Shown here piece after piece: positions 43,545 to 63,846 of a DNA stretch of 64,000 nucleotides (position 1 is its first letter; each line of letters starts with the position of its first letter). The DNA comes from Eledone cirrhosa. Lineage: Eukaryota. The stretch spans positions 48,484,001 to 48,548,000 of the forward strand of contig OZ024750.1 of NCBI GenBank assembly GCA_964016885.1, given 5' to 3'. The translations under genes and the position numbers were made by a program. The notes under the pieces are model-generated. The model saw only the letters and a list, made by a program, of their open reading frames with translations. It did not search any database and was not told the origin of the DNA.

Positions 43545-43950
43545 ATGAAAGTATATATAGTGTATTTTGCAATACACTGTATGCTTAATTAAAAGTATTT
43601 CGAAGACCTTATGCAATTGTTTTAGAGTAGTGACAGTCTCACTTACTTTAATTTTCAGCAAACATGGGAGATAAACACGACAGAGCCCTGTTTCACATTG
43701 TTTGATGCTTTTCAAAGCTAACTACTCCTCCTGTTTACAGAAAATCATGGATGTTTGATTCTTATGGAATTCTAGTAAATAATCAGGAACTTATTATACA
43801 GAGCGGTTGCCGGTCAAGTAGAAATTGAAAATTAGAATTGGTGCTCTGAAATAGCTATATATATATATGAATATATATATAGTGTATTTTGCAATACACT
43901 GTATGCTTAATTAAAATCATTTCGAAGACCTTATGCTATTGTTTTAGATA
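43545..43950 (-). mobile_element. ~322-bp HHR-containing non-coding unit with ~75-bp direct terminal repeat inside (TA)n (retrozyme-like or pLTR-only)
   Basis: 43552-43626 repeated at 43874-43948; homologue at 56380-56620. Confidence 0.7.
43676..43718 (-). ncRNA. Hammerhead motif with U3-A8 core
   Basis: Minus strand: UUGAAAA-GCAU-caaaca-AUGU-GAAA-CAG-ggcu-CUG-UC; stem I poor. Confidence 0.5.
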
Positions 43951-44061
43951 TATATATATATATATATATATATATATATATATATATATATATATATATA
44001 TATATATATATATAGTGACGAAACACAAGTTAATTGCATGAACTCATCATCCTATATTTAA

Positions 44062-44113
44062 TGCTATATATATTTCGATGATAGCCATTGACTGGCTATG
44101 ACCTCATCAAGCA
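44062..44113 (-). ncRNA. Hammerhead-like motif (decayed relative at 22033-22083, minus strand)
   Basis: Minus strand: UGC-UUGAUGA-stem II AUAGCCA/UGGCUAU-GAAA-UAUAUA-UA-GCA. Confidence 0.55.
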
Positions 44114-45254
44114 GTTAGTCAGTTCTTAGATATGCCAGCTCTGTGTTTATAGTGTTGATGGTTTCAGAGCCTTGGGACATATGAGCTTGTTAGGAATAAT
44201 GTAATGTTGTCAGCAGGAATAGTCTTGATTCTCATTTGTCAGTTTGTAGATGGTAGTAGTGGTATTTGACCTCAAAGAGGCAGGTGGTGTTGTAAATGTT
44301 AAACCGCCAGGCAAGATGACAATAGTTCCAATTAAGGTTAATAGAATGAAATAGATACTACATGTCATTCTTAAATTGAGGAATTTATGTGGAGTAATGC
44401 TACTGAAATGTATGGTTAGAGTAGAACATTTACAAATAAAGAGACATATGTAGGTTGGCTGGCACGTACACTCACATCCGCCTCCACAGACACAGACACA
44501 CAACCACACATACGAAATGTTGGGTGGTAATACTTAAATATTGGTTAGAGTCCAATACTTCGATAGTATAGAACATTTAGAAATAAAAGGTTTATGCTGG
44601 TTAACTTGTACATACACTCACACCTACCCCCCTCAGACACTCACACATTTACACACACACATTCATACAGGTGTGTATGTATATATATATACACATAACA
44701 TATAAAATATATATATATATATATATAAAATATACACATACATAAAATATATACACACATAAAACATACATACATATATATATAAAATACACATACATAT
44801 ACATATATATACAAAATATATACATATATATCCATACATATATATAAAATACACATATATACACATATAAAATATATAAATATATAAACATGATACATAT
44901 ATACATTTATATATAAAGTCAGGTTCAATAAATAGTGGTTTTGATGACTCCTAACCAGTAGAGGTTCCGGTGGACCATCCACCATAGGGACCACAAACTC
45001 TGGGTCCAGAATGGCGTCCAGAATTAGCCGTCGAAACGGCTTGAGCTCAGCAGTCGTGATCCTACTCGTTCCTATTACCCACTCGACTGCCCTAAGTATT
45101 GAGTACTTTGGTGCGTTATCGTTCCTTACCATATTGCCTTCGTTATATATATATATATATATATATATATATATATACATATATACAGAAATGGTCGATA
45201 TGGAAGCCTCTTCATTACAGTTGGGGAAATCCTCTAGAAACAAAATCAGTTGGC

Positions 45255-45615
45255 AGTAGGAAGAAGGGAAATGTAGGAATAATCGTAAACAGAAACGTAA
45301 AAACGCGTAAAAATAAAACCAGATTTGGATTTAAATTGAAAGAGATTTTATCGTTCCCAATATTTCGAATTTCACATCCATCGACGTAGGAGGATTCCGA
45401 ATGGAAATATGTATGTCAGGGAAGCGAACAATGTGCGGCAGTCGCTATTATCCGTTTGCGTCCAATCACCCGATATACGTTTATTCCTTCGGATACCACA
45501 GCGTCGATGGATGTGATATCTGAAATATTGGGACCAACAAATCTCTGGTTTTTATTTTACGCCTACTTACTTCACTTTTTATCTTTCGTCGTACATTTAT
45601 CTCTCTTCCTTCTGT
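45255..45615. repeat. Imperfect long inverted repeat (MITE/fold-back-like)
   Basis: cgtaaaaataaaaccaga...tcccaatatttc...tcacatccatcgacg mirrored by cgtcgatggatgtga...gaaatattggga...tctggtttttattttacg. Confidence 0.75.
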
Positions 45616-61100: not shown

Positions 61101-61447
61101 CTTGAATAAAATAAGACACGATAAAAACTGAAAAGCTTTTATAAGGTTTTACTTTATTTTGAAAAGACAAATTTAATTAATTCTTAGTAAAATTACTGCT
61201 GGAATGTCAAGGAAATATATTAGTTACATAAATTATTTACTAGCTCAGCCAGTGGAAATTCTACGTTTTAAGTAGAATCAACTACCTTATACTAATTATA
61301 AATATGAAATTTTAAAACATATATAGATATATATATATATATACAAATAAAAGCGTGTGTGTGTATGTGTGGGTGTGTGCGTGCGTGTGTGTGTGTGAGT
61401 GTATTATACTCATATATATATATATATATATATATATATATATATAT

Positions 61448-61685
61448 CTAAGGCGGGTAAAATTCCCAAGATCCATGGACGAGTTCTCTCCAGCGGTCTC
61501 TATCCCTCATTATCGCTGCCATATCCTGCATCTCCAACAGACCAGTGTCTGTCCTTAGGGCATCAACATATGTTAACCTTGGTCTTCCACTTCTAGTGTG
61601 TCCATGTAGGGGTTCCCAAAGCTTGAGATCGGTGTGGAAGTTGGACCTTCGTAGAGACCTGAAAGTCCGCCTCCTCATTGCTGTA
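61448..61685 (-). mobile_element. 3'-terminal fragment of an RTE-type LINE embedded in (TA)n
   Basis: [28 protein letters not shown]...[14 protein letters not shown], typical C-terminal GRP...DR..WR pattern. Confidence 0.8.
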
Positions 61686-63267
61686 ATATATATATATATA
61701 TATATATATATATATATATATATATATATATATATATATATATATATATATATATATATATATATATATATATATATATATATATATATATATATATATA
61801 TATATATATATATATATATATATATATACATATATATACATATATATACATATCTAATAATAATACATTTTAAGACTAAAATCTAAAGAGGGCTCAATGA
61901 GGATAAATATATATCAAATATATTAGAACCGTAGAGCAAAGATCCCGTTAAGGGTGAAATAAGCGATTATTTGCTTAAACTAATGTGTTATCTTATTAAA
62001 TAAATATATATAAAGAAGAAATCAAAAAAATGGTTAGAAAAGTTCCATATATTTTATTATGCGCATTTCGAAAAGTATATCATCCTGGAACAAAAATTGT
62101 GTTCTAATCACATAAAATAAGGTAACATGATATGAAGCCTAATAACACTTATGAACAAGAAAGTGTCCATCCAACATATGACACAAATATAAGAGAAGCG
62201 AAAAAATAGGAAAAAAGGGAAGAAGAAGGAAAAAGGAAAAAGAAATAGAAGAGAGGAAAAAAGAAAGAAAAAAGGTGGAGAGAGAAAGAGAAAGAGAGAG
62301 AGTTAGATACTTTTGATCGGGAACGCTCTCAACAATTGAAAAGCAGCTGTGTATAACGGTTAAAACAATTAAAAAAAGATAGATAAATAAATAAATGCTA
62401 CTTACCTGATATATGCTAGTTTATTGTTCTACATATTACACACACACATATATATATATATATATATATATATATATATATATATATATATATATATATA
62501 TATATATATATTGCATCAACAATACACACGAAGATATATTGGATGTATTAAGGTAATGACTGGATCTACCCCCCAAAATACATATTTTAATTCCTTAATT
62601 ATAACTTGAGTATGAACAATATTCTTCGTACAACATAGGTTACGAAAGAAATCACCATCCCTACCGCAGCCAATCTTTCTCTACTCTGTTGTCCCTCTCA
62701 TGGACAGCATGGCCTTTGAATAAAGGCGTGAGATATAAACATTTGGCTTTACACTTGTCACAATCACAATTTCTGGTCTTTATGACTCTAACGCACACAT
62801 TTCACAGTAAAACAGTCTTTAGACCAAAGATGCACAATCCTTAATATTATAGATTATGTGTCTCTACCTCCGTGTCGGGCCTTTGTGTATCTAAACATGA
62901 TACATCATTTCATGTTGCCAAATTCACTCAGCTGAAAATATGAGCAGCACCAGTGAAGAGGGTCTGGAAGGCACAAGTGCCTAACGCGAGTGAAACCGAG
63001 ATGAATGATCAGAGAAAGGTCTGTGCTTCTTTCTTACTGAAATGTTTAAACTGCCTTCTATTTGCTAATATTATTGAGCCGAATTATTTATCGTCCTTTT
63101 TTATTCTTACACTTTCAATGTTGTTTGAATAAGATGTGAACGTTTTGTTCAATTCAATTTCCGATAAAAAAAACAAACTCACGTGAAAAACGATGCTACA
63201 TTGATAATGCCGTAATTCACAATATATATATATATATATATATATATATATATATATATATATATAT

Positions 63268-63846
63268 ATAAAAACAAATAACGAAACGAAATTAAATTTC
63301 GTTTCGTTTGTAACTCACTTTTGTATGACTGATACTAGTATTTCAGTATACATATGTGGATGTACATTTTTAACTTAATTGTTTAAGCGTCAGTCATACA
63401 AAAGTGAGTTACAAACGAAACGAAATTTAATTTCGTTTCGTTATTTGTTTTTATCGTCTCCGCTGAACCGGTATGTACTCACGCTCTATGCAAATTAGTC
63501 TGCCCACTACTAATTTTCATAGAAAAAGCATATAACGATATGTGCTTTTACGATTCTCTAGAAAGGCCGGAAGATAGGTAAATATTGCTGATGAGATGTA
63601 ACAACATCGAAACTAGTCCAATATTCCTTGTCTGGCTTTCTGGAGAATAGAGGAAAGGTGTTTCCTCGAAAACCAGTATGACTCTAAAAACCGGTTTGTC
63701 TGTGTGTTTACATACAGAATAGCTGGACACTCACAGTAAAGTGTCCAGTGAAAAACTCGGTACATCTACATATGTACACGTGTGTGTATTCATATGCATA
63801 CTAGTATTTCAGTATACATATGTGGACGTACATTTTTAACTTAATT
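63268..63846 (+). mobile_element. ~466-bp HHR-containing non-coding unit with direct terminal repeat and 5' inverted segment, flanked by TA repeats
   Basis: 63332-63380 repeated at 63798-63846; 63268-63332 is the reverse complement of 63390-63454. Confidence 0.8.
63581..63625 (+). ncRNA. Intact canonical type I hammerhead ribozyme
   Basis: Stem I AAUAUUG/CAAUAUU (7 bp; extendable via 63554-63570 with 63631-63647), CUGAUGA 63588-63594, stem II GAUGU/ACAUC, GAAA 63609-63612, palindromic CUAG, GUC. Confidence 0.9.

Follow-up and report, generated by a model that had tools for sequence, protein, structure and literature searches.

Non-coding hammerhead repeats inserted at TA microsatellites of the octopus Eledone cirrhosa, probably by enzymes of Penelope-like elements

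The window analysed here, 64,000 nucleotides (nt) of the octopus Eledone cirrhosa (GenBank assembly GCA_964016885.1, contig OZ024750.1, positions 48,484,001 to 48,548,000 of the forward strand), is animal DNA of 33% GC in which (TA)n is abundant. It contains four non-coding units, A to D, each joined head to tail to a partial second copy of itself. Unit A (43545-43948, minus strand) has a period of 322 nt and spans 1.25 units with an overlap of about 82 nt (repeat identity 95.6%, E 4e-24); B (55155-55997, plus strand) has a period of 768 nt, 1.10 units and an overlap of about 75 nt (95.5%, E 2e-23); C (63332-63846, plus strand) has a period of 466 nt, 1.11 units and a 49-nt overlap, 63332-63380 recurring as 63798-63846 (97.8%, E 8e-15); and D (26461-27402, minus strand) has a period of 627 nt, 1.50 units and a 312-nt overlap (93.3%, E 5e-131). 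The partial-tandem geometry, reported in a first-pass annotation of the sequence, is real for all four; it was delimited by self-BLAST of the masked window and by pairwise alignment, the raw repeat search being swamped by (TA)n. The units are probably insertions of non-coding hammerhead repeats, of the type known as retrozymes without long terminal repeats (non-LTR retrozymes), which seem to have been reverse transcribed into TA microsatellites by enzymes of Penelope-like elements (PLEs) acting in trans.

The non-coding nature of A-D is borne out by their longest stop-free stretches, 52-84 amino acids in doubled units, and by blastx against 33 PLE proteins, which gave nothing better than E 0.17 for them (a PLE remnant, used as positive control, gave E 3e-20); no frame for reverse transcriptase (RT) plus GIY-YIG lies in or beside any of them. 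By eye D contains a short RT-like peptide, but this comparison gives no support for descent of D from coding sequence. A, B and C had been described as ending in TA repeats. TA-rich runs are indeed present, but they stand at both sides of all four units, and A and D face the minus strand; with such runs on both flanks, the TA is therefore best read as target sites, not as 3′ tails. The ends of A-D join (TA)n, and a 4-bp target duplication is not evident. A relative of A (56367-56617, minus strand, 71-73% identity) crosses the overlap of A and has its 3′ end about 30 nt further, and a relative of D (1-213, minus strand, 77% identity) crosses the monomer junction of D with a different truncation point; B has no second copy within the window. 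Beside C lies an inverted 5′-truncated piece of it (63268-63332, minus strand), the reverse complement of 63390-63454 at 65/65 positions, joined to (TA)n. The window also holds a fifth partial tandem (19040-19779, minus strand; period 529, 211-bp overlap at 95.7%), with its 3′ end in (TA)n and a hammerhead core word in both copies, the downstream GAAA being absent. A sixth (34929-35583, minus strand; period 519, 30-bp overlap) has an inverted piece at 35464-35583, a core at 35286 and two 3′ ends about 78 nt apart, which is the same anatomy as that of C.

Hammerheads were sought by a strict type I scan and then by a graded type I scan scored against dinucleotide shuffles, the latter in place of a first relaxed scan that, with its stem cut-offs, gave 2 motifs. 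The strict scan found C alone. In the graded scan C scored 18 points (0/1000 shuffles), B 14 (1/1000), D 14 (3/1000) and A 0, with no intact core; over the whole window, 8 hammerhead-like motifs scored at least 14, against 0.13 expected from shuffles. The minimal type I hammerhead of C (63581-63625, plus strand) has a stem I of 7/7 pairs, the core CUGAUGA, a stem II of 5 bp and a stem III of 1 bp with a palindromic loop, and is predicted to cut itself after 63618. Rfam gave 0 matches in the window at gathering score; the C motif reached 38.9 bits with Hammerhead_HH9, below the gathering score of 52 (E 3.7e-7), and B is absent among the 53 sub-threshold matches listed. An exact-pattern search for the C ribozyme returned 0 hits in metagenome contigs and 0 in viral contigs.

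The other units depart from the early description of one hammerhead in each of A, B and C and no clear one in D. The type I hammerhead of B (55690-55819, plus strand) has a 97-nt branched stem II and a palindromic stem III, but the proposed cleavage site at 55812 reads GUG. The NUH rule for hammerhead cleavage sites excludes G at position 17, and because of this G the ribozyme is predicted to be inactive in this copy. D does have a hammerhead, a partly decayed type I motif on the minus strand that spans 26790-26709 and is predicted to cut after 26716. Its two copies carry their mismatches in stem III at different pairs, and the upstream partial copy starts just past the core. The hammerhead of A, near 43690-43740, is decayed, with two core positions lost, and the relative of A has an intact core at 56563 with poor stems. 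The two decayed ribozymes (43690-43740 in A and 56520-56600 in the relative, minus strand) cross-pair in a type III topology, the 5′ half of A with the 3′ half of the relative, at 5/5 and 5/5 positions. From these two decayed copies, descent of A from a type III ribozyme is suggested tentatively; such descent would be unusual for animal retrozymes, and a type III scan of the window found 0 hammerheads.

Several further motifs were observed. An intact type I hammerhead at 1167-1030 (minus strand), about 70 nt from (TA)n, has a 104-nt stem II and a palindromic stem III as in B, with U at position 17; it is the same design in unrelated sequence, as its alignment with B scored 146.5 against a shuffled mean of 142 and kinship with B was dropped. 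Minimal hammerheads with a long stem II may be a recurring subtype here. At 23230-23565 two minimal hammerheads, with scores of 16 and 15, form an inverted pair, the inversion stopping four bases past the predicted cut. A family at 23892-25862 has hammerheads at 23933 and 25467 (17 points each) together with several pieces that are inverted, truncated and terminate in (TA)n, and a long inverted pair at 40520-41045, adjoining (TA)n, has a hammerhead core word on each arm.

Public sequencing runs were compared with unit C, with contig depth taken over 29 bins; X22 consists of genomic restriction-site-associated DNA (RAD) reads, and the library type of X1 and X5 is not on record. In X1, possibly the source sample, 1,255 contigs match C, 614 of them at 99% identity or more and 440 at 95-99%, with depth in 29/29 bins. 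C is therefore not a unique local duplication, an outcome that would have undone the early annotation, but a many-copy family with little divergence, "many copies" being all that summed contig depth conveys, which is not copy number. The share of X1 contigs scored as running on into unlike sequence is 0. The depth is continuous round the 466-nt circle, across the head-to-tail junction, and with the two overlap copies folded together it is 473-567k against a mean of 524k, that is single and not double; most C copies therefore pass through the overlap, which is not an LTR. Together with the relatives of A and D, which run through the overlap as well, this removes the direct terminal repeat that had been proposed. 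By index, parts of C occur in 20 of 24 rows from 16 studies, those of other organisms being leads apart from X10. Runs X4 and X6-X19, labelled as many other organisms, hold parts of it in shares of 0.20-0.48, and alignment of X10 to C gave one 195-nt contig with 1 difference (99.5%, depth 2.85); related species, contamination and horizontal transfer are alternative sources of these matches.

The loose ends and variants of C described here are those listed, a further 103 loose ends and 67 variant rows having been recorded. The stem II pair 63596/63607 shows a two-sided change, A>T with T>A, in three of four runs (X1, 44% and 32%; X5; X22), X10 not covering the pair, and 76% of X1 depth has U at position 17, which is still NUH. 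Among 40 listed variants, nine break a predicted pair if taken singly, and two of those nine are the compensating pair. C folds strongly, with z -11.2 as a circle and -11.25 as a linear molecule (0/100 shuffles for the latter); z is -3.3 for B as a circle and weak for D (-2.2) and A (-1.8). The loose ends of C that enter (TA)n in X1 are at 63385 (5 contigs) and 63454 (6), with an A-run plus TA at 63455 in 2 further contigs, and the window copy uses both 3′ ends, its main body stopping at the equivalent of 63380 and its inverted piece at 63454. The two ends are about 30 nt apart in A, 70-74 nt in C and 78 nt in the unit at 34929. All seven 3′ junctions examined (7/7) lie at T/A-rich internal sites, which suggests priming via short pairing to a nicked microsatellite. 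The RAD read ends at 63377, 63427-29, 63496 and 63512 were rejected as element ends, as they coincide with AATT sites, and their agreement is near 0.35.

A depth step gives a weak sign that some C copies were made from ribozyme-cut RNA and start at the cut. The nine bins covering 63458-63619 are the lowest of 26 rotations in X1 and X5 (ratios 1.43 and 1.39), and in a single X1 contig a loose 5′ end falls at 63620. The step was noticed post hoc in noisy, correlated bins, two of its "low" bins are high, and X1 and X5 come from one study.

Remnants of PLE proteins occur at 3558-4880, 8537-9196, 12000-13678 and 33097-33333, weaker matches being scattered elsewhere, and the longest RT of the window has as its closest named relative an Octopus vulgaris protein (57% identity). 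A broken endonuclease-positive (EN+) PLE at 12000-14044 (plus strand) comprises RT, GIY-YIG, a 3′ non-coding region, a hammerhead-like core at 13845 and a (TA)n end. It has no DNA similarity to A-D, and it shows that this enzyme class is present. Related PLE 3′ regions at 351-900, 13640-14044, 33334-33960 and 34680-34900 have a conserved core, stem II and GAAA; they lack an adjacent stem I partner, and a downstream segment is able to pair with the core itself. A TA run of 670 bp breaks the GIY-YIG-type frame at 3558-4880 on its upstream side, and immediately downstream of it is an AT-rich tandem array (2655-3608, minus strand, periods 109-290). A dispersed repeat of about 130-200 bp, resembling a short interspersed element in size and spread, has more than 10 copies, among them those at 14186-14563, 36300-37450, 46497-46750 and 57480-58180.

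Genomic RAD reads of other C copies carry clustered A>G changes in 63615-63740 (plus strand), on the hammerhead strand; the window copy is without them. The run X22 has A>G at 33 places and T>C at 13, X1 at 8 and 6; X5 has 17 T>C places, from which, with no library on record, no expression is inferred. Eight A>G sites in 63671-63690 are common to 112-113 reads of X22. Seven of the eight have a single read start, and each of their reads differs at 12 or more other positions; the remaining site, 63678, has two starts listed and occurs in clean reads too. Further sites are 63615, in the palindromic loop, 63644, 63710, 63721 and 63738-40. Context was assessed on 13 sites, 63615 and 63644 (G upstream) being left out as more widely shared. 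A or T stands upstream of 13/13 of them against 43/77 of the other adenosines (p 0.0014; the sites are not independent), G upstream of 0/13 and A downstream of 7/13. The cluster is likely to represent one or two genomic copies derived from sense-strand RNA edited by ADAR. Genomic copies of a retrozyme or PLE edited by ADAR were not found in the literature searched, mostly outside subscription papers; the main text of Knisbacher and Levanon (2016) does not mention ADAR, and the passages searched in Zaranek (2010) hold no match for such copies.

The features of the units can be joined in a scheme of PLE-driven movement, all steps of which are inferred, cleavage being predicted and the partner PLE hypothetical. 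A head-to-tail transcript of the unit would fold, and a PLE protein would nick (TA)n and prime reverse transcription inside the unit, at either of two fixed U/A-rich positions, which in C would be 63380-85 and 63454. Reverse transcription would pass back through the monomer junction, over the site of the ribozyme, and stop at a variable point, an inverted piece sometimes being added at the 5′ side, and the "terminal repeat" would be the overlap left where the run exceeds one unit. The relatives of A and D, which cross the monomer junction and end at other points, fit such a variable stop. In vitro, an anole PLE cuts both strands of AT-rich DNA and primes reverse transcription internally, at two sites of its RNA and mostly on uncut molecules (Frangieh, 2024; PMC11167929), and PLEs are described as targeting (TA)n and leaving 5′-truncated partial tandems with an inverted 5′ copy and a tail at one end (Craig, 2021; PMC8557442). 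These traits and internal start sites, applied to a short head-to-tail unit, yield a 1.x-mer. Since A-D cross their own ribozyme sites, the template must have been uncut there, either as a circle or as an uncleaved tandem transcript, two forms that the data do not separate and that are about equally likely. The 1.x-mer geometry had been taken as the signature of a circular template; it is ordinary for a PLE partial tandem, would arise equally if a tandem transcript stayed uncut, and does not prove a circle. The annotation is thus supported in part: the units are non-coding, dispersed families with a hammerhead and PLE-type ends, and EN+ PLE remnants lie in the same window, but the geometry is not supported as a specific signature.

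Several points weigh against this scheme. No autonomous PLE sharing ends, tails or other sequence with A-D, such as the first-pass annotation had proposed to look for, lies within the 64-kb window, and the two 3′ ends of C, 70-74 nt apart, exceed the 30-40-nt PLE tail. Of nine predicted dimers, one was cleaved in vitro (Li, Clavereau and Pollet, 2026; bioRxiv 10.64898/2026.07.22.740005), so that the predicted ribozyme may be inactive. No locus among A-D has the two complete ribozymes of an "active retrozyme" as defined there, and the four would be monomer-class copies under that definition. No "go back" joint that would prove a C dimer is listed, a weak test with X1 pieces of at most 160 nt. 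A, B and D are each known from one or two copies. A rarer exit of C into a longer element is possible among the loose ends beyond those listed. As to the reading of the A>G cluster as editing, what weighs against it is that the cluster comes from a single run, that its phasing is deduced from counts and that 9/13 of its sites are unpaired in the monomer fold, so that editing would need a longer duplex, which may be the fold-back transcript of an inverted locus or a duplex with an antisense RNA.

Within PLE-driven movement, the possibility that ribozyme-cut monomers were ligated into circles, with the 1.x-mers as runs of RT round them, falls somewhat short of an even chance. The circular fold of C is strong with its hammerhead exposed (-155.8 against -157.3 kcal/mol unconstrained), but the linear fold is equally stable (-160.6 and -161.6 kcal/mol in two computations), so that the fold expresses no preference and was set aside as proof of a circle. 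By analogy with the axolotl motif, the 1-bp stem III of C would cut mainly as a dimer and leave monomer circles stable; retrozymes of coral, mussel and axolotl do form circles (Cervera and de la Peña, 2020; PMC7229834), and the depth step hints that cut RNAs exist and are copied. The anole enzyme, in contrast, used uncut RNA as its main substrate in vitro (Frangieh, 2024), and the unpaired A>G sites are better explained by a long fold-back or antisense duplex than by a lone circle. It is quite improbable that the units are instead 5′-truncated tails (pseudo-LTRs) of protein-coding PLEs, with the overlap as tail or target duplication. GIY-YIG remnants at 13226-13636 and 33097-33333 do lead on to hammerhead-like 3′ regions with (TA)n at their ends, and the read comparison covers C alone. 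PLE protein similarity is, however, absent in or beside A-D, the depth of C is continuous round its circle, with no exit at a fixed upstream point into a longer element among the X1 loose ends listed, and the relatives of A and D, crossing the monomer junction, show that the overlap is not a target duplication. Far less credible still are events at the DNA level, by which local duplication or satellite-type unequal exchange at fragile TA microsatellites would have made the units with no RNA step. The window is rich in (TA)n, and local tandem amplification of PLE ends has been proposed (Li et al., 2026), but DNA slippage would not be expected to give dispersed relatives, 3′ ends in common, a stem II change on both sides of the pair, the strand asymmetry of A>G or an inverted piece whose end falls on the base where other copies also stop.

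For the A>G cluster the competing account, a library artefact or simply a diverged subfamily, is unlikely, though less so than the tail and DNA-level accounts of the units. The cluster is present in one of four runs from few start points (1-4 for most sites), perhaps one or two loci; sites in A runs are not independent, and of the eight linked sites X1 has 63688, in 1 contig. On the other side, the eight sites share the same reads, and the 13 differences would all be explained by eleven A>G changes together with two family-majority differences. Most A>G changes are on minus-strand reads, where they appear as T>C, and so would not be dark-cycle G calls. The read starts at 63711 and 63713 fit what is presumably an SphI restriction site, which two A>G changes would create; the changes would then be in DNA, which would explain the read enrichment, the second of them, 63714, being absent among the variant rows listed. 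The context, A downstream with no G upstream, matches the invertebrate hyper-editing motif (Porath, 2017). A fuller proposal is that C records the whole cycle in the genome: one class of copies, templated by cut linear RNA, would run from the ribozyme cut to the distal start of reverse transcription, another, templated by circles, would cross the cut, both with PLE-type ends, and ADAR-edited RNAs would also have been copied into DNA. As a whole this is improbable; if true, editing of RNA would bring inherited mutations into a mobile element and might inactivate its ribozyme, as by A>G at 63615 in the loop of C and possibly by the G at position 17 of B.

The movement of animal retrozymes is still a hypothesis, in that circles have been shown and the link to PLEs is co-occurrence and shared sequence. 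Interest therefore centres on C as a test case and on its likely edited genomic copies: it is a many-copy family of low divergence with fixed 3′ ends, inverted pieces, a predicted cut site and apparently edited copies, and mapping its copies in one octopus assembly would tell whether the template was cut, uncut or circular and what role PLEs play. If the A>G clusters hold, RNA editing, which is extreme in octopus, has been fixed in DNA through retrotransposition.

Compared with known systems, the closest are the non-LTR retrozymes of animals, for which circles have been shown and copying of the circles into tandem cDNA by PLE RT has been proposed (Cervera and de la Peña, 2020), and which have since been tied to PLE pseudo-LTRs, with units of 51-972 bp and frequent monomers (Li et al., 2026); the PLE-moved retrozyme model is thus already in print. 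No octopus example was found in the literature searched, although supplementary lists lay outside that search and a prior mention is possible; expansions of Penelope in coleoids have been described (Marino, 2022). A-D resemble these retrozymes in being non-coding and 322-768 nt long, within the reported range, in the type I hammerheads of C (intact), B (G17) and D (partly decayed), A having no intact core, and in low GC, a self-paired fold with the ribozyme exposed (C), many copies including monomers, and PLEs alongside. C shares its 1-bp stem III and palindromic tetraloop with HHR_Amex1 of the axolotl. Unlike them, A-D do not form dimers or arrays but span 1.1-1.5 units, and no locus among them has more than one complete ribozyme; the stem II of B is 97 nt long, and A is perhaps, tentatively, derived from type III. 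Plant LTR retrozymes are likewise non-coding and combine a hammerhead with direct repeats at both ends in a 600-1000-nt class (compare B and D), but B, C and D are of type I and not type III, their repeat is a variable overlap rather than an LTR, and the ends of A-D join (TA)n with no 4-bp target duplication evident. A-D resemble EN+ PLEs in their (TA)n targets and minimal hammerhead, and in a partial tandem that is truncated on the 5′ side, can carry an inverted 5′ copy and has two alternative 3′ ends; they differ in having no RT or GIY-YIG frame, no cognate autonomous partner within the 64-kb window, and an end spacing of about 30 (A), 70-74 (C) or 78 nt (the unit at 34929) against 30-40 nt. 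Non-autonomous head-to-tail PLE forms have been described for Chlamys, under the name MRC1 (Craig, 2021). The early suggestion of undescribed non-autonomous families holds in part: C is multi-copy, A and D have one relative each and B none in the window, and the kind is already known. A-D are probably undescribed families of that known kind.

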